Notes: a model not told the origin generated them from the sequence alone. Numbered from the stretch's first letter, positions 1 to 13,494 are shown. The stretch: 14,766 nucleotides of DNA from Planctomycetota bacterium (GCA_016928605.1 JAFGKN010000113.1:1-14766), one strand, 5' to 3'. Made by a program: numbers and translations.

Positions 1-116
1 ATCAGCCGCCTCTCCCTCCACGTGGAGTGAGAGGCCCTGCGACAATCGTACGCTGATGCATCAGCGGCTGCGGCTCGCGGGAGGGGGAGCGGGAGCAGGA
101 GGGGGTCACCGTTGCA

Positions 117-256
117 GCTGCCGTTGCGATTACGGATGCCGTTGCGGCTGCCGTTGCGATTACGGATGCCGCTGCGGATCGCGGCTGCGGATCGCGGCTG
201 TGGATCGCCGCTGCGGTTCGCGGCTGCGGGTCGCCGCTCCGGTTGCGGTTGCGGCC
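117..256. repeat. Tandem repeat tract: a 30-bp unit x2 (117-146 and 147-176, 1 mismatch), followed by roughly six degenerate 13-bp GCGG-containing units (171-248)
   Basis: Read directly. gctgccgttgcgattacggatgccgttgcg occurs twice in tandem. The tract then continues as gctgcggatcgcg-like units, with GCGG recurring every 6-7 nt. All three reading frames are low-complexity here, so coding status is unresolved. Confidence 0.8.
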
Positions 257-2154: not shown

Positions 2155-2782
2155 TCGCAGTCTCCTTGTTCTCTTCCACGGGGACCACCGTCACCGTATC
2201 TGAACCCACGAGTCCCACCACGCGGATCGGAGTCCCCGTGGCGAGCCCTTCGCCTTGACTGAGGGCGGCCACCTCCACCGTGCGGTCCTGCACGCTGACG
2301 GTGACCTTGCCCCGCCCTTCCCCCTTGGGGGGGACTCTCAGATAGACCTTCCCCGTCGCTCCCACCGCGTTCTTCAGGTTGACGTTGCCCTGAGACTGGA
2401 GCCTGCGCAGGAGCATCCAGAGGTAGGCCACGAGGTAGAAGGCGACGCACCCCGAGATGCCGGCCAGCACGAGCTGGCCGACGACGCCGAAGTCGTAGGA
2501 CTCGCCGAGGAGCCCGCCGAGACCGAAGAACGTGAAGAACGCGTTCAATGTCTTGAACGAGATGACGGTGAACGAGCTCGTGGCTGCCTCGCCGCTCGCG
2601 CCCTCGCCGGCGTCGACGACGTAGCCGCCGGAGACGTCATCTGAGATCTCATCGGGCAGGTCGGCGGCCCCCACGTCCAGATCGGCATCGCCGCCGCTGT
2701 CCAACCCGATCACGAGGAGCAAGATCTGGATGACCAGGATCGTTCCTCCTGCCACCGCGCAGATCAAAAAGACGAGATGCAT
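2147..2782 (-). CDS. NfeD-like membrane protein (YqiJ-like partner of flotillin), 211 aa
   Basis: N-terminal hydrophobic helices and an acidic linker. The C-terminal beta-rich NfeD/OB-fold-like segment reads GATGKVYLRVPPKGEGRGKVTVSVQDRTVEVAALSQGEGLATGTPIRVVGLVGSDTVTVVPV. A GGAGG sits 7 nt upstream of the ATG at 2782. The gene lies directly 5' of the flotillin gene with an 8-nt overlap. Confidence 0.8.
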   Translation of the reverse strand: MHLVFLICAVAGGTILVIQILLLVIGLDSGGDADLDVGAADLPDEISDDVSGGYVVDAGEGASGEAATSSFTVISFKTLNAFFTFFGLGGLLGESYDFGVVGQLVLAGISGCVAFYLVAYLWMLLRRLQSQGNVNLKNAVGATGKVYLRVPPKGEGRGKVTVSVQDRTVEVAALSQGEGLATGTPIRVVGLVGSDTVTVVPVEENKETANG

Positions 2783-3016
2783 GGCTGACCTCCATCCGCC
2801 AGACCTTGGAGAGCGGGCAGCGATCTCCCGCCGATGAGTAGTCGTGCCCTCCGCGCCGCCGTTTCAGCCGATCGCGCCCGCCCCCTCCCGGGCGCCGTCC
2901 GCAGCGCCCAGGGGAGGCAGCAGTCCCGCTGCCGGCCTGCCCTTCGAGGCTTCTGCGGCAGGCTCGAGTTCGGGTCTTCCACGCTGGCAGCGGCCGCCAT
3001 TCTATACCAGGAAGAT

Positions 3017-3028
3017 ATTGCCGGCAAT
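3017..3028. promoter_or_regulatory. 12-bp perfect palindrome ATTGCCGGCAAT in a locally AT-richer patch of the 581-bp divergent intergenic region; candidate operator
   Basis: Read directly. It lies between the divergently transcribed NfeD-like/flotillin operon and the Tat-isomerase gene. The context is tctataccaggaagatATTGCCGGCAATcgagg. Any function is inferred. Confidence 0.3.
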
Positions 3029-3363
3029 CGAGGGGCCCCCGTTTCCGCGCGCGCGGAGCCCGCTGCGGTCGGCATCGCGGCCCGCCGCGGGCGGAATCTC
3101 GTCATCGGCCGGAAGGCTGCAGACAGTCACCATTCGCGGCCCTTTCCGGAGCGCTGTCTCCCTGCCGGCGAGAGCCGACGCTTCCGACCATGGCATTCCG
3201 CGTGCTTCTTGCGCGCGATGCCCTCGCGCCGCTATCCTGGTGCGGGATCCGGAGCTCATGGATCCCTGCGGCCGACCGGATCGCGAGCGACCGGTGCCGC
3301 GAGCAGAACCCAGAGGATGTCTCGCCGGAGCCTTCCCGCGCTCCGGCGGAGGGAGGATCGAAG

Positions 3364-4293
3364 ATGGGATCGACGACCGAGCAGCGCTTGATCAGCCGCC
3401 GCGGACTTCTCCAGGCCGGCCTGCGAGGAGCCTCGGCCCTCCTCCTCGCCCCCGCTGCCTTGCAAGCCGGTGAGGATCGCCCGCGCCCCGCCGGCGAGCC
3501 GTGGCGCATGAGGCTCTCGACCTCATCCATCCATTTCATGGGTCTGCCGATCGAGAAGGCCTGCGAGCGGATCGCGGCCCTCGGCTTCGAGGCGATCGAC
3601 ATCTGGTCGGCGCACGATGGCTGCCCCCACCTGGACGATGTCCTCAAGCGGCTCGGGCCCGAGGGGCTGAAGGAAGTTCTCTCTAAGAACCGCCTCAAGC
3701 TCTACGCCTTCTCGGTGTACCAGGGCGGCTACGCGCGCTACGCCGAGCTGCTGGGAAAGGCCGGGGGAGGCGTGGCCGTGCAGGGCAGCGCGGCCCCCTG
3801 CGAGCCCTCCGAGCTCTCAGCGAGGATGCGCGCCTTCCTGGAGGGCCTGAAGCCTCTCGAGGAGCTCGCCGAGAAGCACGACTCCTACCTCGCGATCGAG
3901 AACCACGGGAGCGCGCTCCTCGACTCGCTCGACTCCTTCAAGGCCTTCGTCGACCTCAACCGCTCCAGGCGGATCGGCATCGCGCTCGCGCCCTACCACG
4001 TGCAGGCGAGGAAGGAGTCCGTCGAGAAGGCGATCGAGATCAGCGGCCGCCAGCTCCTCTTCTTCTACGCCTGGCAGAAGGAGCCGGGAAAGAACCAGCT
4101 CCCCGGCCACGGCCCCGCCGACTTCAAGCCCTGGCTGGCGGCCCTGGCGAAGGCGCGCTACCGCTGGTACGTCAACCCCTTCATGCACGGCCACCCTCCG
4201 GCCGAGGAGATGGCCGAGGCGCTTGCGGCCTCGCGGGACTACCTCCGCAAGTCCTGGGAGGAGGTCACCAGCCGCGCGCCTGCGGCAGGGTGA
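3364..4293 (+). CDS. Sugar phosphate isomerase/epimerase, xylose-isomerase-like TIM barrel, with a twin-arginine (Tat) signal peptide
   Basis: I prefer the start at ATG 3364 (MGSTTEQRLISRRGLLQAGLRGASALLLAPAALQA), which has a GGAGGGAGGA SD 5-14 nt upstream. The six-frame ORF extends back to 3190, but that N-terminus is not protein-like. The Tat motif is SRRGLL plus a hydrophobic h-region and AxA. The rest has TIM-barrel isomerase composition (IDIWSAH...LAIENHG...). Confidence 0.8.
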   Translation: MGSTTEQRLISRRGLLQAGLRGASALLLAPAALQAGEDRPRPAGEPWRMRLSTSSIHFMGLPIEKACERIAALGFEAIDIWSAHDGCPHLDDVLKRLGPEGLKEVLSKNRLKLYAFSVYQGGYARYAELLGKAGGGVAVQGSAAPCEPSELSARMRAFLEGLKPLEELAEKHDSYLAIENHGSALLDSLDSFKAFVDLNRSRRIGIALAPYHVQARKESVEKAIEISGRQLLFFYAWQKEPGKNQLPGHGPADFKPWLAALAKARYRWYVNPFMHGHPPAEEMAEALAASRDYLRKSWEEVTSRAPAAG

Positions 4294-5662
4294 GGATGAC
4301 CGACCCGCCCTTGAAGATCGTCACCTCCCCCGTCGACTGCGAGAGGGTGACGGTCACGCACTTGACCGCCTTCGTGATGCCGCAGGCGGCTCTGTGGCGG
4401 CTGCCGTAGCCGCCGGGCAGGTCCACATCCTCCCCCACCTTCAGGAACGTGCCCGCGGAGTGGACGACGCCGTCGCCGCGGACGACGAACGCGCCGTCGA
4501 TTCCGGCGAACTCCTTGATCGTCTCGGCGAGCGTCGGATCGAGGATGTTGCGCTCCTCCTCCGGATAGCCGCGGAACGGGTTGATGACCATCTGCTGGGT
4601 GAACGGCGCGAGCTTCTCCTGGTCGCCGATGATGACGAACAGCGTGCCGACGGGGATGCCCTCGCGCCCCTCGGCCGCGAGCTCGGTCGCGAGCGAGATG
4701 ACGCGCTCCAGGACCTCGGGCGAGATCCCCGGAGCGACAGCCCCCGAGGGCGTCACGAACCGTCCGATCTGACGGCCGATCTCGACGATCGTCATCGTGT
4801 CGAGGCCGGGCCCGTCGTTTCCCGACAGGAACGCCACGATGTCCCCCCTCTGGATGAGCCCGTGCGTGAGCGCCATGAGGGCGGAGAGCTTGACGCTGGC
4901 GGCACGGCTCACGGCCATGCGAGGCAGCAGCAAGACCCTGTTCACGACCTTCTCGGCCTCCTCCGCCAGCTGCCGCGAGGCGGTCGTCACGATGAAGCTG
5001 GCGCGCTGCGGGATGCGCTTGAGGATCTCGAGCTCCTCGCGGGTCTCGATGTTGACGAGGATCGAGGAGACGCCCGTCTCCCGCGCGATCTTCTTGGCGT
5101 AGCTCAGCAGGAGCTGGGTGAGCGGCCTGGCCTTCCCCCGCAGCCGGTCGGACCGCCGGCTGTCGAGGAGCCGGATGACTGCAGCGGCGTCCGCGGCGTG
5201 GAGGATCTGATCCTTCAGCTCGGGGTTGATCAGCAGACGGGCGATGGTCCCGAGGAGGTGGACGTGCTCGGACTGGAGGTTCTCGTTGCCGACGACGAGG
5301 ACCGCCAGCACGACGGGCTCGTCGGTATCGATGCCGTAGGGAAGACCCTGAGGGTTGCGCGCGATGGCGAGGAAGATGCCCTCCACACAGTCGACGCGGG
5401 CGTGAGGAATCGCGACGCCGCTGCCCACGTAGGTGTTGACGGCAGCCTCCCGCTCCTCGATGCCGCGAAGGATCTTCTGGACGACGTCCTCCCCCGCGCC
5501 GGGCACGACGACCTTCGCGAGCGCTCGGAGGAGATCCTCCTTGGATCCGGCGGTGAGATCGAGGACCGCCTCGGGGCGGATGTACTGCGAGAGCTTCACG
5601 TCGGGCGCCGCCAGCTTCAGCCCCGTCGTCGGCGTGGACCTCTCCCGGGAAGGGCGGGTCAT
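4265..5662 (-). CDS. Three-domain signalling protein: PTS EIIA(Ntr)-type domain + pyruvate-kinase-C-terminal-like domain + diadenylate cyclase (DAC/DisA_N) domain. Putative c-di-AMP synthase under EIIA control
   Basis: The EIIA-2 signature REAAVNTYVGSGVAIPHARV and the ...DEPVVLAVLVVG...HVHLLGTIARLLINPELKDQILHAADAAAVIRLL block lie at residues ~25-165. The middle region (SFIVTTASRQLAEEAEKVVNRVLLLPRMAVSRAASVKLSALMALTHGLIQRGDIVAFLSG) resembles the PK_C alpha/beta domain. The C-terminal DAC motifs are GIDGAFVVRGDGVVHSAGTFL...GGYGSRHRAACGITKAVKCVTVTLSQSTGEVTIFKGG. A GGAGGAGGA SD lies 7 nt upstream of the ATG at 5662. Confidence 0.85.
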   Translation of the reverse strand: MTRPSRERSTPTTGLKLAAPDVKLSQYIRPEAVLDLTAGSKEDLLRALAKVVVPGAGEDVVQKILRGIEEREAAVNTYVGSGVAIPHARVDCVEGIFLAIARNPQGLPYGIDTDEPVVLAVLVVGNENLQSEHVHLLGTIARLLINPELKDQILHAADAAAVIRLLDSRRSDRLRGKARPLTQLLLSYAKKIARETGVSSILVNIETREELEILKRIPQRASFIVTTASRQLAEEAEKVVNRVLLLPRMAVSRAASVKLSALMALTHGLIQRGDIVAFLSGNDGPGLDTMTIVEIGRQIGRFVTPSGAVAPGISPEVLERVISLATELAAEGREGIPVGTLFVIIGDQEKLAPFTQQMVINPFRGYPEEERNILDPTLAETIKEFAGIDGAFVVRGDGVVHSAGTFLKVGEDVDLPGGYGSRHRAACGITKAVKCVTVTLSQSTGEVTIFKGGSVILTLPQARGW

Positions 5663-6862: not shown

Positions 6863-8131
6863 ATGCAGGCTGCGACCGTGGTCCGGGTGGCGCTCGTCGG
6901 AGGCGGCATGTTCGGTGGAGACGTCGTCCTGCGCTCGATCGAGGACCTGGAGCGCTGCGGCATCGCCCCCTACCTCGGGCGGGTGGGGCTCGATCTGCGC
7001 GCCCGCGAGCTGGCCGCGGCGCGGTTCCGGCTGGTGGCGATCGGAACCAGGACGCCGCAGACCGCCCGCCGCCTCTGCGCGGCCTACGCGGCGAAGGTCC
7101 CGGACAGCTCGCCCGAGCCCTTCTGGGGCGAGGAGCCCTGGAAGGAGATCCTCGACCGCCACGACGTGCAGATCCTCTACATCGCGACGCCCGACCACCT
7201 CCACTTCGAGCCCGCGGCGCATGCCCTGCGCAGCGGAGCTCACGTCATGGTCGAGAAGCCCCTCACCCTCCGCCTCGCCGAGGCGCGCGAGATCCTCGAG
7301 CTGGCCCGCGCCCGGGGACTCATCGCGGGCGTCGACATGCACAAGCGCTACGATCCCTGCCACCGGTTCCTCTTCGAGGAGCTGGTGCCGAGGATCGGCA
7401 CTCCCCTCTACGGCAGGGCTGTGCTCGAGGAGCCCCTCGAGGTCTCCACGCGGACGTTCCTGTGGGCCGAGAGATCCAATCCCTTCAGCTACGTCGGAGT
7501 TCACTGGCTCGACCTCTTCGGCCACTACCTCGCGGCGACTCCCGTCTCCGTGCACGCGGTCGGCCAGAAGGAGCTGCTCGTGAACTGGGACCGAGAGGGA
7601 GGCGGCCGGAAGATCGACACCTTCGATGCGATGCAGGTCTCGGTCGACTACGAGGGCGGCCTGCGCGTCTACTACGTGACCAGCTGGATCAACCCCCCGG
7701 AGTTCGAGGCACCGGTCAACCAGGAGATGGAGATCGCCGGCACCCGGGGCAAGATCGAGTTCGACCAGCAGGACCGCGGCCTGCGCGCCACCATCTCCGG
7801 CCTCGGGACGCGCACCTACAACCCCCACTTCACGGCCGACGTGCGCCGTCTCGGAGGCTGCGCCCACCCCGCCTACGACGGCTACGGCAAGGACTCGATC
7901 GTCGCCATCACCGCGAGAGCGCTCGAGGTGATCCAGGGGCTCGCGACCCGCGATGAGCTCGCCGGCACGTATCCCGACGTGGAGAGCTCGCTGCCGACGG
8001 TCTCGGTCATCGAGGCAGCGGAGGAGGTGGCCCGCCGCAACTGGCGCCGCCAGCGCGGCGGCCGCGGCACGCCTGTCACCGCCCGCATCCGCGCCGACGG
8101 GTACGACATCGTCGACCCGCTGGCCGGTTGA
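6863..8131 (+). CDS. Gfo/Idh/MocA-family NAD(P)-dependent oxidoreductase, 422 aa
   Basis: N-terminal Rossmann motif VRVALVGGGMFGG. Conserved blocks ILYIATPDHLHFEPAAHALRSGAHVMVEKPL and GVDMHKRYDP. A GAGG SD is upstream of the ATG. It is divergent from the 5745-6584 isomerase gene, with a 278-bp shared upstream region. Confidence 0.9.
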   Translation: MQAATVVRVALVGGGMFGGDVVLRSIEDLERCGIAPYLGRVGLDLRARELAAARFRLVAIGTRTPQTARRLCAAYAAKVPDSSPEPFWGEEPWKEILDRHDVQILYIATPDHLHFEPAAHALRSGAHVMVEKPLTLRLAEAREILELARARGLIAGVDMHKRYDPCHRFLFEELVPRIGTPLYGRAVLEEPLEVSTRTFLWAERSNPFSYVGVHWLDLFGHYLAATPVSVHAVGQKELLVNWDREGGGRKIDTFDAMQVSVDYEGGLRVYYVTSWINPPEFEAPVNQEMEIAGTRGKIEFDQQDRGLRATISGLGTRTYNPHFTADVRRLGGCAHPAYDGYGKDSIVAITARALEVIQGLATRDELAGTYPDVESSLPTVSVIEAAEEVARRNWRRQRGGRGTPVTARIRADGYDIVDPLAG

Positions 8132-8136
8132 CCCTC

Positions 8137-8151
8137 GCCGGCTCGGCCGGC
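8137..8151 (+). terminator. Weak candidate hairpin GCCGGCtcgGCCGGC just after the Gfo/Idh/MocA stop, with a T-rich run (cacttttgtttcc) about 35 nt downstream
   Basis: Inverted repeat read directly. The U-tract is not adjacent to the stem, so this is not a canonical intrinsic terminator. It lies between convergent genes. Confidence 0.2.
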
Positions 8152-8204
8152 CGCCGCGCTACCCGATCGTTGACCGGATTTGCCACTTTTGTTTCCGAGA
8201 TACA

Positions 8205-8289
8205 CCTAACGCCTCAGCTCACCGATGGCGGCCCCCCACTGGCTCCCGAATCGCCTGGAGGCGTCGCAGGGCCGCCATTCGGTGCAGCG
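8205..8289. repeat. Copy 1 of an 85-bp dispersed direct repeat (partner at 8866-8950; 80/85 identical, no indels). It covers 9 nt of 3' junction, the stop codon and the last 24 codons of the minus-strand gene 8214-8864
   Basis: Direct alignment at a 661-bp offset. Copy 1 is cctaacgcctcagctcaccgatggcggccccccactggctccCgaatCgccTggaggcgtcgCAgggccgccattcggtgcagcg. The five mismatches are capitalised. Confidence 0.9.
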
Positions 8290-8864
8290 GTTTTGTTGGG
8301 CCTTGGCAGAACTCCTCGACCTAGCGAAGTGCCCACGGCGGCCTGCCACAGCACCATGTAAAGGCCCAATATAAGCTTAACGGAACCGTATGACGCCAGA
8401 CCCTTGGTGGCTGCAAGCAGATGCCCCCCCATCAACCCACCAATTGCAGTGCCAACAACCACAGTCGTGCGAGTAGCTCTCACCCAACCTGGCCGTCCAA
8501 AAAAGAGCAAGCTCGCCAGCACCAGTGAGCCCAGAAAACCTGAGAACGCGAACGCCGCAACCATGTATGCCCCCGGGTGGCGGGTCGTCGAGGCGGCGAT
8601 GTGCCATGCAACTGGGTAAACGCCGCAACTGGCGATCAGAGCGGCCGCGGTTCTTGGCCAACCGTCTCGGGCCAAGCGGGAGATGGGGAGGATGACTATC
8701 AGTGCGAACACGAGGCCCGGCCAGACAATATGGTCGTAGGTCTTTTGCTCGCGCACCACGTAGAGCATGCTAGAGTCTGCCATCCCACACGACAACACGC
8801 CCGAAACGAGACCAAGCAGTCCCCAGCGCACGGCCCACCTGGCAACTTTACGCATTGAACTCAT
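8214..8864 (-). CDS. Hypothetical polytopic membrane protein (216 aa) ending in a Pro/Gly/Ser-rich tail AAPNGGPATPPGDSGASGGPPSVS
   Basis: Five or six hydrophobic helices (for example LVFALIVILPI, YMVAAFAFSGFLGSLVLASLLFF, TTVVVGTAIGGLMGGHLLAA, VKLILGLYMVLWQAAV). Its ATG lies 10 nt after the stop of the upstream gene, over TGAGGCGTTAGGcATG. It sits in a lower-GC segment. I recognise no family. Confidence 0.6.
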   Translation of the reverse strand: MSSMRKVARWAVRWGLLGLVSGVLSCGMADSSMLYVVREQKTYDHIVWPGLVFALIVILPISRLARDGWPRTAAALIASCGVYPVAWHIAASTTRHPGAYMVAAFAFSGFLGSLVLASLLFFGRPGWVRATRTTVVVGTAIGGLMGGHLLAATKGLASYGSVKLILGLYMVLWQAAVGTSLGRGVLPRPNKTAAPNGGPATPPGDSGASGGPPSVS

Positions 8865-8865
8865 G

Positions 8866-8950
8866 CCTAACGCCTCAGCTCACCGATGGCGGCCCCCCAC
8901 TGGCTCCGGAATTGCCGGGAGGCGTCGGGGGGCCGCCATTCGGTGCAGCG
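8866..8950. repeat. Copy 2 of the 85-bp direct repeat, covering the stop and last 24 codons of gene 8875-9321 plus the 9-nt junction that here leads into the start of the next gene
   Basis: See copy 1. Three of the five mismatches are synonymous on the coding (minus) strand. The other two give A->P and D->N. Confidence 0.9.
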
Positions 8951-9321
8951 TATGGTTCGCTGAGTGAGGTCATCGGTTTTCTGGCTGGATCCGGTATTCT
9001 CACTGATTCAGAGCAATGCGGACAGTCCTTCACGATACCGTTGAACCACGAAACCACCACTGTGCCCCCACACTCAGGACATTGAAAGTGCCTCCGGCCC
9101 ATGATCGGCTTCGGATCAGCTACGTGGCCCCGCCAGTAGCCAATGATGCCGAACACCACTCCACCAGCGGGAATGCCAGCGATCGAATAGAGAATAATCA
9201 TAGGCCCCTTCACCACTCCACAGGCGTCGTGGAAAACAAGGAGGCCCACGCAAAACCCCGAAAGAGCCCCAGCACACAGGCCGATCAGAAACCAGAGCAG
9301 CGTCTGTTGAGTCTTCGTCAT
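8875..9321 (-). CDS. Hypothetical small membrane protein with two N-terminal TM helices, a C4 zinc-ribbon (CPEC...CPHC) and the shared tail AAPNGGPPTPPGNSGASGGPPSVS, 148 aa
   Basis: I prefer the start at ATG 9321 (MTKTQQTLLWFLIGLCAGALSGFCVGLLVF...), which has an AAGGG upstream. The six-frame ORF extends to 9429, but that would overlap the upstream gene by about 70 nt. The zinc ribbon is RRHFQCPECGGTVVVSWFNGIVKDCPHCSESVRIP. Confidence 0.55.
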   Translation of the reverse strand: MTKTQQTLLWFLIGLCAGALSGFCVGLLVFHDACGVVKGPMIILYSIAGIPAGGVVFGIIGYWRGHVADPKPIMGRRHFQCPECGGTVVVSWFNGIVKDCPHCSESVRIPDPARKPMTSLSEPYAAPNGGPPTPPGNSGASGGPPSVS

Positions 9322-9358
9322 TGGGATAGCCCTTTCGCCCTCGGTTATTGCCTCGCGA

Positions 9359-9784
9359 TCAAGGTGAGCGACTGAGGTTACTCGTTCTGCTTCCCGCCGG
9401 GGGCTTGTCTTTCCTCGTGTGCTGTTCAACGGCCGCCCTGATTAGGAAAGCCATCCCGCCGATCCCAAGCCCAGCCAGTCCGTACACGATGCCGTACAGG
9501 AAGAACGCCAGGAAGAACGCCTCGGCCGACAAGCCGGCACTGATCAGAGGAGGCACACGTGCCGCTGCGACCACCCCCCCGATCGCCGGGTAGTAGAGCA
9601 GCGCGAATCTGGACTTGGATACTCGGATGGCACAAACGAAGGCGACACCCATCAAGACCAGCGGGATTACAGCAATACAGAAAAGAATCTCACGGGCAGC
9701 TCGCTCAAAGCCATTCCCCAGCACAGTGGCCGGCTTGACGAACAGAACAAGAAGAATGAGTGCGGACAATATTAATCGTTGCAT
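9359..9784 (-). CDS. Hypothetical 4-TM small membrane protein, 141 aa
   Basis: I prefer the start at ATG 9784 (MQRLILSALILLVLFVKP...). The ORF extends to 9937, but that N-terminus is Arg-rich and non-hydrophobic. There are four hydrophobic helices. The local GC is the lowest in the window. No obvious SD. Its ATG overlaps the stop of the candidate upstream ORF by 11 nt (CGATGCAACGATTAA). Confidence 0.5.
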   Translation of the reverse strand: MQRLILSALILLVLFVKPATVLGNGFERAAREILFCIAVIPLVLMGVAFVCAIRVSKSRFALLYYPAIGGVVAAARVPPLISAGLSAEAFFLAFFLYGIVYGLAGLGIGGMAFLIRAAVEQHTRKDKPPAGSRTSNLSRSP

Positions 9785-10410
9785 CGTGTCTCGCGTGCCG
9801 AACGCCGATTGGACTGTTCCACCAGAACTCTTCCGTGCCGCCTTCGCGCGCCGTCTATAGTCTTCGGATGGCAGAACTCCCACGATTGCACATCGCTGCT
9901 TCCACGGCCTTTGGATGTTGGCGGCGTCAGCGCCCACTGGGTTTCGCCCGCAGGCGCGCGGCGCTGCGTATGTTTTTCGCAGCCATACAGCGGGTGTCGA
10001 GTCTCATGGGTTCGATTCGCCATACCTCGCGGTGATCGCTCAGCTCCACCATCGGCTCGACGGCGCTCTCGGCGCGTCACGGGCCGCGGCAGACTCGTCA
10101 GCCAGTCCTTTGAGCGCGGGTCGCGGCCGGCGGTGATCTTGCAGATCTGGACACCGGCGTCTTTCAGGCGCGGGCGAAGAGGCGCGAAACCGCGCAGCGT
10201 GGCCCGGCACAGAAGGCTCCGCATGCGGGGCGCGAGCGAGTCGAGATGCGCCGCAGCGGAATACCCTCCGGCGCGCGAGCCGGCTCTTCCGGACCGACTG
10301 GCAGCTCCTGCCTTCAGCACGCTCCGCCGTTCCCCCGCGGCGATCCCGCCAACTCGCCGGTAGAGGAAACGGCGCGCGTAGATGCGCGGGCTCTGAGGTA
10401 ATGCCACCAT
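9772..10410 (-). CDS. Candidate hypothetical protein (~212 aa, MVALPQSPRIYARRFLYRRVGG...), uncertain
   Basis: This frame keeps a higher third-position GC than the alternative frames over 10410-10040, and an AGAGGG SD-like sequence lies 5-8 nt upstream of ATG 10410. However the protein is Arg-rich and matches no family I recognise. It could be an off-frame artefact or a decayed gene. Confidence 0.25.
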   Translation of the reverse strand: MVALPQSPRIYARRFLYRRVGGIAAGERRSVLKAGAASRSGRAGSRAGGYSAAAHLDSLAPRMRSLLCRATLRGFAPLRPRLKDAGVQICKITAGRDPRSKDWLTSLPRPVTRRERRRADGGAERSPRGMANRTHETRHPLYGCEKHTQRRAPAGETQWALTPPTSKGRGSSDVQSWEFCHPKTIDGARRRHGRVLVEQSNRRSARETRCND

Positions 10411-10616
10411 CTTGCCCTCTCTGCAGCGACGGACGCTCGGAGCCTTCACACACCGAACGGAGGCAGCGTAGCAGAGCTGGTCGTCGCCAGCAAGCTCTTT
10501 GCACCGAGCTGCCCGCTTCGACTCAGGCAGCATGCTCCGGATCCGTCGGCGGTCTCGACACATCCTCCCGTCACAGCGGCGCAATCCTCTTCGTCTTCTT
10601 TCCTGGTGCCCTGCGC

Positions 10617-12437
10617 TCAGGGCTCCTTCCGCCGCGGCGCGGCTCTTGCCTCGCGCTCGACGTTCGCCTCGAGGAGGAAGTTGAGGAGCAGGTTCTCGAT
10701 GGCGTGCTCGTCCTCGCGGGATCCCTGCTTCCCGAAGTGGCTCAGGACGACCATCACGACTCCCGGAAGCCGCCCGCGAGGCGCCGAAGGCTGGCCCGGC
10801 GGCACGGAGCTTCCCGGCCGCACCGCGAGCGCGACGAGGGAATCGGCGCCGAGCTTCTTCTGGAGCTCGCCGCTGCCCAGAAGACCGACGACCTTCTGAG
10901 CGTTCCGGACGCGCAGCGCGTAGCTCTCGTCGTCGATCCACCACTCGTGGCGGATCCTGAGCAGGCTCGCCGGCTCCGGCTCCTCGTCATCCACCCCGGC
11001 CACGACGGTCTTCCCGCGCCCGGCGCCGCCTGCGGCCTTCTCTTCCTTCTCCTCCTCTCCATCCTCTTCATCGCTGAAATCGAGGTCCAGGTCGAAGGAC
11101 ACTCCGCCGGAGCCGCCATCCTCACCGGGCACGAAGATGCCCTTCAGGTAGGGATGCAGGGCCATGCCCCGCACGGGGACGACATCGACGCTCGACTCCG
11201 CCAGCTTGTCGCCCGCCGTCACGCTTTCCGGATAGGCCTTCTCCATCAGCTCCTTGACCACCCAGTCCTCGCAGAAGATGTAGCCTCCGGACTTGACGAA
11301 GCTCTTCAGCTTCTCGATCTGGGGCCCGGTCAGCTCCGCGGAGAAAGGGATGTGCTTGTCGCAGCCCGTGCAGGGGTAGAGGCGGTCGTTCTTCACCTTC
11401 CCCGGCTTGCAGAACGGGCAGATGCAGATGCGATGGAACTGGGTGCAGTTGATGAGGATGGCGCCCGTCTCGCGCAGGTCGAAGTCGAGAAAGTCCTCGC
11501 GCTCCACCACCGTGTGTGGGATGTTCATCCGCTCGAGGACCTCGTCCATGTGGTCGTTGTTGAGGTCCTTGCGGACCAGAACGGGGTGGCTCTTCTTCGT
11601 GAAGACCGCGCTCAGGACGACGACGCCTTTCTTCGGCGCGCGCTCGAGCGCGAGGTACCGCTCGCGGCGCTGGACATCGAGGCTGTCGACGGCCGTGCCG
11701 GTCTCCGACCTGTCCTGCTCCTGGCGGCCGGCCAGCGGCTTGCCCTGGTTCTTCTTCCACCAGCCCTCCCAGTTCACCGAGTTGAATCCGTACTTCTTGC
11801 CGGTGAGGTTCGTCAGGCTCTCGATCACCGTGATCACCGGCTCGCCGGAGTCGGACGCTCCCCGCTTCTCCTCCGCCTTCAGGACTTCGATGAGGGCGTC
11901 CACCGCCGCCGGAGAGCGGATGAAGCCGAGCTGGGCGGCCGCCTGGACCCGGAGATCATCCGCGGCGGACTCGTCGAGGAGCACCGGCCGGAGGGCCGCC
12001 GGAGCCTGCCGGGACGTGTTCCTGGAAAGCGCGTAGAGCACGTCCCGCGCCACGGGCTGCGCGCGGTTCTTCACGATGAACTCGCCGACCGCGCCGAGCG
12101 CCGGCCGGTCGGTGAAGCTGACGGCCCCCCGCAGGAGCGACCAGTAGAGGCTCTCGCGGCTCGAGGGGATCTGCCGGATGAGGGAGAGGAGCCGGCGGGC
12201 GGAGTCGGCTCCTCCGGCGCGGACGACGCCGGAGAGCGCATCCTCGATGGCATCCATGTCGTCGGCGCGCAGCGCCTTCTTCAGGCTTTCCAGAGCCGAC
12301 CGGGCGCCGCCGTCGCTCTCCGGCGCCGCGGCGGCGAAGAGAGCAGCGCCGGCGATCGCCAGCGACAGGAACAAGGCTCTCGGCGGAAACGAGGTGCGCA
12401 TGAAGTCCTCCATGCTCGAAGACATCCTTCGCTCCAT
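10617..12437 (-). CDS. Putative secreted protein with N-terminal HEAT/PBS-lyase-like repeats, a Cys cluster (CICPFCKPG...CTGC) and an acidic tract, ~606 aa
   Basis: Signal-peptide-like N-terminus MRTSFPPRALFLSLAIAGAALFAAAAPES, reached from ATG 12437 (GAGGA SD 7 nt upstream). In-frame alternative ATGs lie at 12425, 12413 and 12401. HEAT-like repeats include AAVDALIEVLKAEE and LRVQAAAQLGFIRSPAAVD. The core contains ...GAILINCTQFHRICICPFCKPGKVKNDRLYPCTGCDKHIPF...GGYIFCEDWVVKEL... and the acidic run DLDLDFSDEEDGEEEKEEK. The 997-aa six-frame ORF (to 13610) is an artefactual upstream extension through the SDR gene. Confidence 0.75.
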   Translation of the reverse strand: MERRMSSSMEDFMRTSFPPRALFLSLAIAGAALFAAAAPESDGGARSALESLKKALRADDMDAIEDALSGVVRAGGADSARRLLSLIRQIPSSRESLYWSLLRGAVSFTDRPALGAVGEFIVKNRAQPVARDVLYALSRNTSRQAPAALRPVLLDESAADDLRVQAAAQLGFIRSPAAVDALIEVLKAEEKRGASDSGEPVITVIESLTNLTGKKYGFNSVNWEGWWKKNQGKPLAGRQEQDRSETGTAVDSLDVQRRERYLALERAPKKGVVVLSAVFTKKSHPVLVRKDLNNDHMDEVLERMNIPHTVVEREDFLDFDLRETGAILINCTQFHRICICPFCKPGKVKNDRLYPCTGCDKHIPFSAELTGPQIEKLKSFVKSGGYIFCEDWVVKELMEKAYPESVTAGDKLAESSVDVVPVRGMALHPYLKGIFVPGEDGGSGGVSFDLDLDFSDEEDGEEEKEEKAAGGAGRGKTVVAGVDDEEPEPASLLRIRHEWWIDDESYALRVRNAQKVVGLLGSGELQKKLGADSLVALAVRPGSSVPPGQPSAPRGRLPGVVMVVLSHFGKQGSREDEHAIENLLLNFLLEANVEREARAAPRRKEP

Positions 12438-12475: not shown

Positions 12476-13225
12476 TCAATAAGTCGCGCGTCCCCCGGAG
12501 ATGTCGTAGCAGAAGCCGGTGGAGAAGCTGCACCGCTCCGACGCGAGGAAGGCGACGAGCTCGGCCACCTCCTCCGGCCGGCCAACACGGCCCATCGGGA
12601 TCTTCGAGATCATGTACTCGCGGACCTCCGGAGCGACCTGCTCGAGGATCTCGGTCTCGATCACGGCGGGGGCGACCGCGTGGACGAGGATGCCATCCGT
12701 CGCGACCTCCTTGGCGTAGGCCTTGGTCATCCCTATGAGGGCGGCCTTCGTCATGGAGTAGGCGACGAGGCCCGGATTGCCCTCCTTGCCGGCGATGGAG
12801 GCGATGTTGACGATCCGGCCGTAGCCCGCGCGCATGAAATGAGGATGCGCCGCCGCGCAGAAGAACCAGGGCCCCTTGACGTTGACGGCGAAGATGCGGT
12901 CGATGTCCTCCTCGCTCTGGCTCGCGAGCGGTCCCGGCGTCCCCGCGATCCCCGCGTTGTTCACGAGGATGTCCAGGCGCCCGAGGGAAGAGACCGCGAG
13001 CTCGACGACCTCCTCGGCCCGCGAGCGGACCGTGACGTCGGCAGCGAGCGCCAGGACGCGCTCGCCCTCCGGATCGAGCTCTCGCGCAGCCGCCTCGGCG
13101 GCCGCGCGGTCCCGGTCGACGATGGCCACGCCGGCCGCGCCCTCCTCGACGAACTTTCGCGCGCAGGCCCGCCCGATGCCCCGCGCGCCCCCCGTGACGA
13201 TGGCGACTCGGTCCTTGAGCAGCAT
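12476..13225 (-). CDS. Short-chain dehydrogenase/reductase (SDR), 3-oxoacyl-ACP-reductase-like, 249 aa
   Basis: TGGARGIGRA cofactor motif in MLLKDRVAIVTGGARGIGRACARKF. NNAG motif (DILVNNAGI). Catalytic SIAG...YSMTKAA (YxxxK). An AAGGGAG SD lies 8 nt upstream of ATG 13225. The upstream six-frame extension to 13498 is Arg-rich junk. Confidence 0.9.
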   Translation of the reverse strand: MLLKDRVAIVTGGARGIGRACARKFVEEGAAGVAIVDRDRAAAEAAARELDPEGERVLALAADVTVRSRAEEVVELAVSSLGRLDILVNNAGIAGTPGPLASQSEEDIDRIFAVNVKGPWFFCAAAHPHFMRAGYGRIVNIASIAGKEGNPGLVAYSMTKAALIGMTKAYAKEVATDGILVHAVAPAVIETEILEQVAPEVREYMISKIPMGRVGRPEEVAELVAFLASERCSFSTGFCYDISGGRATY

Positions 13226-13400
13226 TCTCGAACTCCCTTCGTAGAATCCAGCGTACGGTACCCTGCGGGCCGCCCGGCAGTCCAGCCCCATCGCGCGATC
13301 CAGTCCGCGCCGTCCCGTCCCACTGGCGAAGGAGCCTCCGCCCCTGCGCGGCCGCTCCGCTCCGTGCCCACCCGGCTGGGATACCCGAGCTGCCATCGCC

Positions 13401-13494
13401 CGCGGCGAGGCAGCTGCGCCCATCGCGGCGCCGCCGGCGGCGTGGCCCGGGCCGAGGCAGCTGCGCCCATCGCGGCGCCGCCGGCGGCGTGGCC
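13401..13494. repeat. Intergenic tandem direct repeat, 2 x 47 bp (13401-13447 and 13448-13494). Each copy contains the 14-bp perfect palindrome CGCCGCCGGCGGCG (13429-13442 and 13476-13489)
   Basis: Read directly. The unit cgSggcGAGGCAGCTGCGCCCATCGCGGCGCCGCCGGCGGCGTGGCC occurs twice back-to-back. The tract lies in the 453-bp divergent region between the SDR operon and the Tat-isomerase gene at 13679. Confidence 0.85.

Follow-up and report, generated by a model that had tools for sequence, protein, structure and literature searches.

What is the nature of a low-GC island of small genes that interrupts otherwise ordinary chromosomal DNA of a Planctomycetota bacterium, and how did it arrive there? 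The island lies in a stretch of 14,766 nucleotides (nt) (GCA_016928605.1 JAFGKN010000113.1:1-14766; hereafter the window, i.e. the whole stretch that was analysed) and carries three tightly packed minus-strand genes for small membrane proteins, here called g1, g2 and g3. A first-pass annotation had considered it to be horizontally acquired accessory DNA, perhaps a functional module. [quoted passage not shown] With this reading, an annotation as hypothetical membrane proteins gives way to a mobile-element remnant whose limits are exactly placed; the reading would also explain the C-terminal peptide shared by two unrelated proteins, the tight gene packing and an Arg-rich pseudo-open reading frame (ORF). 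The coordinates of the features are listed in Table 1.

The two attC-type sites of the window

Central to the understanding of the locus is an 85-nt direct repeat, not mentioned in the first-pass annotation, the two copies of which (8205-8289 and 8866-8950) are 94% identical, overlap the 3' ends of g1 and g2 and extend past both stop codons. The sites of integron cassettes, attC, are imperfect palindromes of about 57-141 nt with an unpaired central spacer and a variable loop, bounded by the boxes R'' (RYYYAAC) and R' (GTTRRRY); extrahelical bases on one arm mark the recombinogenic bottom strand. Extended to their terminal boxes, the two copies constitute sites A and B, which are 97-98 nt long and lie 661 nt apart on the same (+) model strand. 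Read on the cassette strand, site B carries GTTAGGT as R' (ACCTAAC, 8204-8210) and GCCCAAC as R'' (GTTGGGC, 8295-8301). Site A carries GTTAGGC as R' (GCCTAAC, 8865-8871), directly followed by the ATG of g1 at 8864, and an imperfect R'' (aGCGAAC). Both repeat copies fold as imperfect hairpins (z -2.2 to -6.7; for site A -6.65 on the + strand and -5.1 on the - strand), with bulges on the 3' arm of the + strand: one is an invariant T, which is also bulged in the fold of site B, and the second is a variable base. The features expected of attC, i.e. core boxes (imperfect for R'' of site A), an imperfect palindrome with spacer and loop, and bulges on one arm, are all found. From the position of the bulges, we infer that the + strand of the sites would be the recombinogenic bottom strand.

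A covariance model built from an alignment of 101 related sites, described below, finds exactly two sites in the window and has a strong strand preference, with 95-98 bits on the + strand versus 39 on the - strand. By definition, a CALIN comprises two or more attC sites clustered on a single strand (within 4 kb), with no intI nearby (IntegronFinder; Cury et al. 2016, PMC4889954). The two sites of the window share a strand and are well within this distance, while no ORF of the window matches Phage_integrase or TIGR02249, the span free of integrases reaching 8.1 kb on one side of the insert and 4.1 kb on the other. The gene order shared with relatives suggests that ordinary chromosomal genes continue beyond the window. 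No intact transposase was found in the window, and no intact integrase either, the latter making the element a CALIN. The earlier remark that an integrase is not visible is correct as far as an intact gene is concerned; it left unconsidered that an integron integrase could have acted in trans or have been lost since.

Table 1. Features of the insert and of its flanks, as assigned here (positions in the window)
Feature	Position	Strand	Description
Gfo/Idh/MocA gene	6863-8131	+	Left flank of insert
Inserted segment	8132-10616	.	2,485 nt between the Gfo/Idh/MocA stop (8131) and the stop of the ~600-aa gene (10617)
attC site B	8204-8301	+	Last in array; covariance model 94.7 bits on +, 39 on -
g1	8214-8864	-	216 aa, six-helix membrane protein; last ~28 residues from attC site B
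attC site A	8865-8961	+	Between g2 and g1; covariance model 98.1 bits on +, 39 on -
g2	8875-9321	-	148 aa, two transmembrane helices and CxxC...CxxC zinc ribbon; last ~25 residues from attC site A
g3	9359-9784	-	141 aa, membrane protein with ~4 transmembrane helices; small rare family
g3-g2 junction without attC	9363-9388	-	g3 body ends at about 9388, g2 homology starts at 9363
Orphan junction box	9797-9803	+	GCCGAAC, i.e. GTTCGGC (family consensus R') on the cassette strand
Tyrosine-recombinase-like stretch	10078-10419	-	Weak, unconfirmed; inside the Arg-rich ORF, co-directional with the cassettes
Conserved gene for a ~600-aa protein	about 10617-12400	-	Right flank, convergent with Gfo/Idh/MocA

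On the minus strand, the array reads R' box (9803-9797), g3, a junction with a putatively lost attC, g2, site A, g1 and site B. In the proposed mechanism, the + strand of each site would fold into the hairpin recognised by an integron integrase, and recombination at G|TT of the R' box would serve to excise and insert the cassettes, with the integrase acting in trans or being lost later. The cassette genes would be promoterless and depend on upstream transcription; a promoter scan of the insert returned no sigma-70-type match, this consensus being uninformative for a planctomycete. The tight packing, shared orientation and short gaps of the genes would reflect integron cassette architecture rather than an operon.

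The remaining two junctions of the array are less complete. The covariance model, run with filters off, detects no third full site in 9300-10100, and folding of 9380-9470 is no better than that of shuffled sequences (z = -0.2). As no site separates the end of the g3 body from the start of g2 homology, g3-g2 probably represents a fused cassette that lost its intervening attC. The orphan box sits 12 nt upstream of the ATG of g3, a spacing in keeping with that between R' and ORF starts in the site family (see below), and is not backed by a hairpin, the segments 9790-9925 and 9790-10025 folding no better than shuffles. The first junction of a complete integron from a related locus (L003, see below) has the same GTTCGGC box, and the orphan box would be either an attI-side or a secondary-site junction.

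The array thus resembles the CALINs described previously (PMC4889954) in its two same-strand attC-type sites, its apparently promoterless small ORFs, two of which are followed by a site, the absence of intI from the window, its small size and its cargo without an assigned function, the last two being shared with most of them. It differs by the g3-g2 junction, which seems to have lost its site, and by ~800 nt of additional DNA in which a recombinase-like trace is faintly discernible. As an element, this small CALIN or degenerate integron is nothing unusual; what stands out is the homogeneity of its site across phyla and the single reading frame that runs through it.

A homogeneous attC family, its integrons and its cassettes

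To collect related sites, each species was represented by a single genome, which was scanned for both stem cores with a variable loop between them. This yielded at least 119 loci (L001-L119), at least about 100 of which have the same 59-nt core span as the sites of the window. Among the loci listed, the hosts are mostly Verrucomicrobiota metagenome-assembled genomes (MAGs), accompanied by Planctomycetota, Acidobacteriota, Binatia and one 'delta proteobacterium'. The consensus of 101 sequences is GCCnAAC-G..TCAG-CTCACCG.ATGGCGGCCCC-(loop)-GGGGCCGCCAT[T]CGGTG[N]AGC-GCCTG-GTTCGGC. Both core arms are uninformative because they were set by the search pattern, and the evidence is carried by the unconstrained parts. 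In the alignment, conservation stops sharply at the terminal 7-mers GCCnAAC and GTTCGGC, and two bulges share one arm. With an attC-style structure written by hand, 90% of cells pair, compared with 29-47% in slid controls; for the stems the figure is 96.9%, the spacers differ in length (about 7 nt versus 5 nt) and the loop is variable. The inner stem pair covaries (CG 50, GC 11, AU 7). AAC/GTT pairs in about 85% of the 101 sites and the outer box positions do so less often, as would be expected if the TTRRRY half stems from the neighbouring cassette. An ORF start follows R' at a distance of no more than about 100 nt at 92 of the 101 sites, in most cases of no more than about 25 nt. Thus, the site family has the anatomy of attC sites. 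An Rfam search for attC sites gave no match at gathering thresholds or at E <= 1, Rfam having no attC family.

The association with integrons is seen in the related loci themselves. The sites form same-strand arrays with spacings of ~200-1,500 nt, comprising at least 10 sites in L068 and 5-6 each in L061, L110, L095 and L111. Integrase-like genes were located with an IntI1 sequence that served as a probe only, and IntI genes or fragments are present in about 12 loci. In four of these (L045, L035, L072 and L003), the encoded proteins score 354-450 bits against the integron integrase model TIGR02249, the cutoff of which is 265. The integrase gene or fragment is divergent from the array, the canonical layout, in 11 loci and co-directional with the cassettes in L003. 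L045 shows the same relation between ORF strand, site strand and integrase as the window, and the orientation of the sites is therefore set independently of the arm with the extrahelical bases.

L003 (1192-6433) is a complete integron in an Acidobacteria MAG, with a co-directional integrase (TIGR02249, 445 bits). Its intI is followed by an AT-rich stretch with two copies of ACTATACGGAA, a GTTCGGC box and a start codon, and this stretch is plausibly an attI.

This attC family is widespread in uncultivated soil and freshwater phyla. Taxon-specific attC models are available for Planctomycetes and Acidobacteria (Ghaly et al. 2021, PMC8352920). Like the repeats of Vibrio cholerae and other sedentary chromosomal integrons, including those behind the Planctomycetes and Acidobacteria models (PMC8352920), the family has a long (~97 nt), homogeneous attC with conserved stems and a variable loop, and arrays beside IntI. 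Unlike the lineage-typical attC families (PMC8352920), it occurs with identical 11-12-nt stem cores in MAGs of several phyla, a comparison to be read with the error-prone binning of mobile DNA into MAGs in mind. This spread would fit the reported clustering of attC by environment rather than by host, and so homogeneous an attC type in uncultivated Verrucomicrobiota, Planctomycetota and Acidobacteriota is consistent with cross-phylum cassette exchange within one environment.

The most direct evidence for movement of a cassette comes from a further locus, L124, which shares 90.6% DNA identity with the window over 681 nt (window 8885 to 8205). This corresponds to one cassette, g1, with an 88% identical protein, and the shared block, which begins just inside the upstream site, extends as far as the end of the downstream R' box. 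The neighbours of g1 in the same-strand array of L124, a DUF2971-like gene and a cupin gene, are unrelated to those in the window, and the boxes mark the break in homology, as expected from excision and insertion of cassettes. The cassette with g1 forms a discrete unit that is found in other arrays: it consists of an ORF with its attC, is bounded by R' boxes and occurs in varied contexts. For g2, only the body recurs, in L120 (300-870, homologous to window 8985-9363 with 85% DNA identity), with other neighbours, without the tail encoded by site A and between short attC-like sites unrelated to the long site of the window. g3 does not form such a unit, as it has no site of its own. The pairing of the same g2 ORF with different attC sites is not predicted by simple cassette excision and insertion. 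In L124, a gene for an IS110-family transposase (DEDD_Tnp_IS110 / Transposase_20; 2209-3270) directly follows the cassettes.

These data also bear on the idea that the repeat is an unrelated hairpin, such as a repetitive extragenic palindromic (REP)-like element, a miniature inverted-repeat transposable element (MITE)-like element or a transcription terminator, that flanks foreign genes by chance. A GC-rich imperfect palindrome at gene 3' ends, with no Rfam family, would be in line with it. However, no T-run follows the stem, the terminal boxes match attC core sites, and the copies in arrays are strictly in one orientation, spaced at 200-1,500 nt and linked to IntI; together with the break of the L124 block at the boxes, this makes a chance hairpin barely credible.

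A few points nevertheless weigh against the assignment of the island as a CALIN. The window contains only two full sites, which is the minimum, and no integrase is present to show that they are active or formerly were. Their identity as attC rests on the family model built here and on context, and what is shown for the family as a whole is an association with integron integrases, by its position beside TIGR02249-positive ones in four loci. The commonest R' of the family, GTTCGGC, departs from GTTRRRY at position 4, whereas GTTAGGT and GTTAGGC of the window conform. g3 has no site of its own, and the orphan 7-nt box may be due to chance, the occurrence of GCCGAAC at this place being estimated at ~2%. 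Finally, the equation of the bulged arm with the bottom strand relies on structural literature, the orientation being independently backed by L045.

Cargo genes and translation through the sites

The three small minus-strand membrane-protein genes proposed in the first-pass annotation are all real, and g1 encodes six helices instead of the four suggested there. In the AlphaFold model of g1 (pLDDT 81, pTM 0.74), the helices span residues 2-185, while the tail, 186-216, is disordered. A Foldseek search of this model against the PDB retrieved only generic helical bundles (TM-score <= 0.39, E > 0.1) and no fold relative. Among the 111 relatives of g1, which are 46-92% identical and of which those with a named host come from different phyla, none has a Pfam domain; most carry the tail in the same or a decayed form, and some lack it. 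The start of g2 is the ATG at 9321 rather than the TTG at 9429, as in the L120 relative. g2 has a single relative in 5.8 billion sequences (75% identity), and its zinc ribbon is matched only below threshold in Pfam and NCBIfam. The relatives of g3 amount to seven cluster representatives, the best of them 70% identical and aligned from residue 1 to ~132 (about 9388). As residue 1 aligns with residue 1 of its closest relatives, the g3 ATG is fixed at 9784. No relatives of g3 were found in metagenome scans. Apart from the sub-threshold zinc-ribbon matches of g2, none of the three proteins has a family in Pfam or NCBIfam.

Upstream of g3, an Arg-rich ORF (9772-10944, minus strand) had been put forward as a possible fourth gene. 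It was rejected as such, having no family match at E <= 10 and an atypical GC content by codon position; part of it weakly resembles a tyrosine recombinase.

The genes had also been proposed to form a toxin/immunity, abortive-infection or membrane-stress module, which would have been acquired as a unit. Their tight packing, single orientation and small membrane-protein products are compatible with this proposal, and toxin-antitoxin and phage-defence genes are among the known cargo of integron cassettes (PMC8618304). Nevertheless, g1, g2 and g3 have no match among the PADLOC defence-system models and no family assignment, g1 is an independent unit because it is bounded by recombination sites on both sides, and none of the genes recurs in the ~100 related arrays. 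They occur apart elsewhere, with other neighbours, so that nothing supports a three-gene functional module or membership in a defence or toxin-antitoxin system, and we regard a joint module as very unlikely. Among cassette proteins in general, the membrane is reported to be the most frequently predicted location (PMC8618304).

A second question concerns the way in which the cargo genes end. In the window, g1 and g2 read through their sites (8214-8300 and 8875-8961) into a common Gly/Pro/Ser-rich tail of ~25 amino acids. Because both end in the 85-nt repeat, they share the C-terminal peptide ...AAPNGGPxTPPGxSGASGGPPSVS (~24 residues). The tail consensus in the family is EPGAAPNGGPAT.LGNSGVTEGPPSVS (~APNGGPAT.LGNSGVTEGPPSVS). 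At 91 related sites, the upstream frame is open for at least 40 codons into the core; the frame of g1 and g2 is used at 71 of them, and 64 of these 71 end at the same TGA in GTGAGCTGA. The upstream ORFs belong to 80 unrelated families, and when each family is counted once, the three frames are used in a ratio of 62:10:8, with about 78% in the main frame. In the site consensus, the second frame gives an Arg-rich tail and the third has no stop inside the site. Loop variability at codon positions 1, 2 and 3 is 0.82, 0.97 and 1.17, i.e. there is a mild excess at third positions.

Such a bias could mean that the repeat is conserved as a shared C-terminal peptide of paralogous membrane proteins, for example a sorting signal or tag, and not as a recombination site. 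The shared ends of g1 and g2, the single frame with its common TGA and the slightly higher variability at third codon positions would all agree with this. Conservation of the DNA, however, continues past the stop codon and ends at the R' box, and it includes a hairpin with covarying and bulged positions, a strong strand asymmetry and arrays beside integron integrases. The tail is predicted to be disordered, as in the g1 model, it has no match in Pfam or NCBIfam as a known sorting signal or domain, and its absence from the L120 relative of g2 and from some g1 relatives shows that it is dispensable for at least g2. In addition, its carriers belong to about 80 unrelated families and are therefore not paralogues. 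A peptide in place of a recombination site is accordingly highly improbable, while a peptide role on top of the attC role could exist.

For the attC sites themselves, it is conceivable, if doubtful, that this family also serves as a built-in gene terminus, in which stop-less ORFs of about 60 unrelated families receive a common tail and a stop from the site. If this is true and selected, it would provide a device that keeps long promoterless arrays translated, by melting of the hairpin and coupling to the next cassette, or alternatively a universal C-terminal tag on integron cassette proteins of Verrucomicrobiota, Planctomycetota and Acidobacteriota. Selection for single-frame fusion would bear on the expression of distal cassettes in long arrays and on the constraints on the formation of new cassettes. 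A duller reading is that the frame bias may merely reflect the sole frame with a harmless tail.

Translation through attC has been reported to relieve the block that the stem-loop imposes on the next cassette, via termination-reinitiation (PMC8876359). In the window, g2 and g1 read through the sites to a site-encoded TGA, and the g2 stop (8875-8877) is 10 nt from the g1 start, so that g1 is probably translated by termination-reinitiation. The arrangement resembles the published case (PMC8876359) in that translation would proceed through the hairpin to a stop a few nt before the next start. It differs in that a separate short ORF inside attC is translated there, whereas here it is the cargo ORF that continues in-frame into the site and ends at the stop encoded by it.

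The insertion point and the origin of the array

The island stands out in composition, as had been noted by eye. Its GC content over 8140-10050 is 0.600, compared with a mean of 0.688 (sd 0.013, minimum 0.662) in 182 equal-sized segments elsewhere in the window (z = -6.8). At third codon positions, the ORFs of the island have a GC content (GC3) of 0.60-0.65, compared with 0.84-0.98 for the genes that flank it. The inserted segment exceeds the 8140-10050 originally delimited, as it includes a GC-rich part: GC is 0.596 in the cassettes (8199-9803), 0.683 in 10078-10616, 0.621 in the whole insert and 0.69 in the flanks. The flanks consist of ordinary chromosomal genes, encoding Band7/flotillin, a xylose-isomerase-like TIM barrel, a PTS_EIIA-DacZ_P-DAC cyclase, Gfo/Idh/MocA, the ~600-amino-acid (aa) protein and SDR. 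No tRNA was detected in the window, in agreement with the earlier observation that neither a tRNA nor a transposase is visible at the edges.

Planctomycetota MAGs contain the closest homologues of the Gfo/Idh/MocA protein (70-75% identical). In three relatives with long contigs (L121, L122 and L123; Gfo 72-74% identical), the gene order is DacZ - AP_endonuc_2 - small ORF - Gfo, and 5, 12 or 13 nt separate the Gfo stop from a convergent gene for a 601-618-aa protein. In L121 and L123, SDR comes directly after this gene; in L122 it is located further along. With 5-13 nt at the same junction in all three relatives, the 2,485 nt of the window must have been inserted. The view of the island as horizontally acquired accessory DNA is therefore borne out by its absence from this junction and by its foreign composition, and what was acquired would be, quite literally, gene cassettes. 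An exact 36-mer of the left insert junction had no match in metagenome scans, and an exact-sequence look-up of the Gfo protein and of g2 returned nothing on record.

The ~600-aa protein of the window aligns with its L123 orthologue up to six residues before its stop at 10617. A comparison of window 10617-10640 with L123 10283-10360 shows that the L123 orthologue runs on for ~24 charged residues beyond this last aligned position, and the C-terminal tail of the window protein may have been clipped or replaced by the insertion. The Gfo/Idh/MocA stop, where the insert has its left edge, is surrounded by a perfect inverted repeat of 13 nt (8052-8064 / 8148-8160; AGCGCGGCGGCCG / CGGCCGCCGCGCT).

About 800 nt of the insert (9804-10616) is not explained by the cassettes, and it is missing at the junction in the relatives. 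Within it, the tyrosine-recombinase-like stretch at 10078-10419 is the best match in the window for three of four IntI proteins of the related loci in a tblastn comparison (E = 0.01-0.16, IntI residues ~85-207), a permissive search of which the top matches alone were used. An alignment with hhalign is collinear over 115 columns and includes the regions of the catalytic Arg and of the GKGxKDR hairpin (E = 0.004, probability 8.6%). A hidden Markov model of four IntI sequences assigns 10.5 bits to this stretch, compared with a maximum of 6.4 in 3,000 composition-matched shuffles, and ranks it first of 238 six-frame fragments. In Pfam, NCBIfam and the PDB, nothing matches it at E <= 10; the IntI-specific region is outside the match, which does not distinguish IntI from other tyrosine recombinases. 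The published criterion for an intI pseudogene is E < 1e-3 with more than 50% profile coverage, and the trace stays short of this. As a complete integron, the window thus offers only a weak 115-column match to the IntI core. Furthermore, window 9760-10640 has no DNA similarity to the intI-proximal (attI) regions of L003, L045, L035 and L072. A decayed integrase at 10078-10419 is therefore a lead and not a finding, with odds somewhat below even.

These observations have to be weighed against another origin, in which an integron integrase whose gene lies elsewhere in the genome or on a transient element would have inserted the cassettes directly into a secondary genomic site ('attG'), with 9804-10616 as unrelated DNA. 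CALINs of two cassettes are very common (1,362 of 2,961) and most have no recognisable intI pseudogene, and experiments have shown that integrases can mediate insertion at genomic sites other than att (bioRxiv 10.1101/2022.09.11.507474; PMC4889954). The failure of curated models and the PDB to recognise the putative remnant, as well as its low hhalign probability, also favour this possibility, and so does the divergent orientation of IntI in 11 of 12 relatives, as the remnant would imply a co-directional layout. On the other hand, L003 has precisely this co-directional layout with the same site family, the recombinase-like match exceeds all 3,000 shuffles and is the best six-frame fragment of the window, and the ~800 nt beyond the cassettes would be left over. 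Secondary-site insertion is thus a serious candidate, though not the one we favour. It would resemble the attG insertions, single attC sites lacking integron integrases (SALINs) and small CALINs described by Loot et al. (bioRxiv 10.1101/2022.09.11.507474) in that an isolated short array lies in a conserved neighbourhood without transposase or tRNA at its edges. The window differs from attG insertions (bioRxiv 10.1101/2022.09.11.507474) by the full consensus R'-type 7-mer upstream of the array and by the extra non-cassette DNA, neither of which is required or typical there. Since 9804-10616 constitutes extra inserted DNA with a weak recombinase-like trace, an integron that decayed in situ is slightly preferred.

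Some features of the surrounding DNA may be recorded in addition. A PTS_EIIA_2 - DacZ_P - DAC (diadenylate cyclase) fusion is encoded at 4265-5662 on the minus strand of the window, beside AP_endonuc_2 and Gfo/Idh/MocA, and it has the same position in L121, L122 and L123. Just past the 3' end of the Band7/flotillin gene, window 109-254 is densely filled with tandemly repeated GCGGCTGCGGATC-type units (81-94% matches), the periods being 13, 30 and 39 nt; the first of these is no multiple of three. Upstream of the SDR gene, a 47-nt tandem duplication (13398-13494; 2.1 copies, 96% identical) lies in GC-rich DNA. The SDR start is probably near 13225, because the SDR proteins of the relatives have 249 aa.

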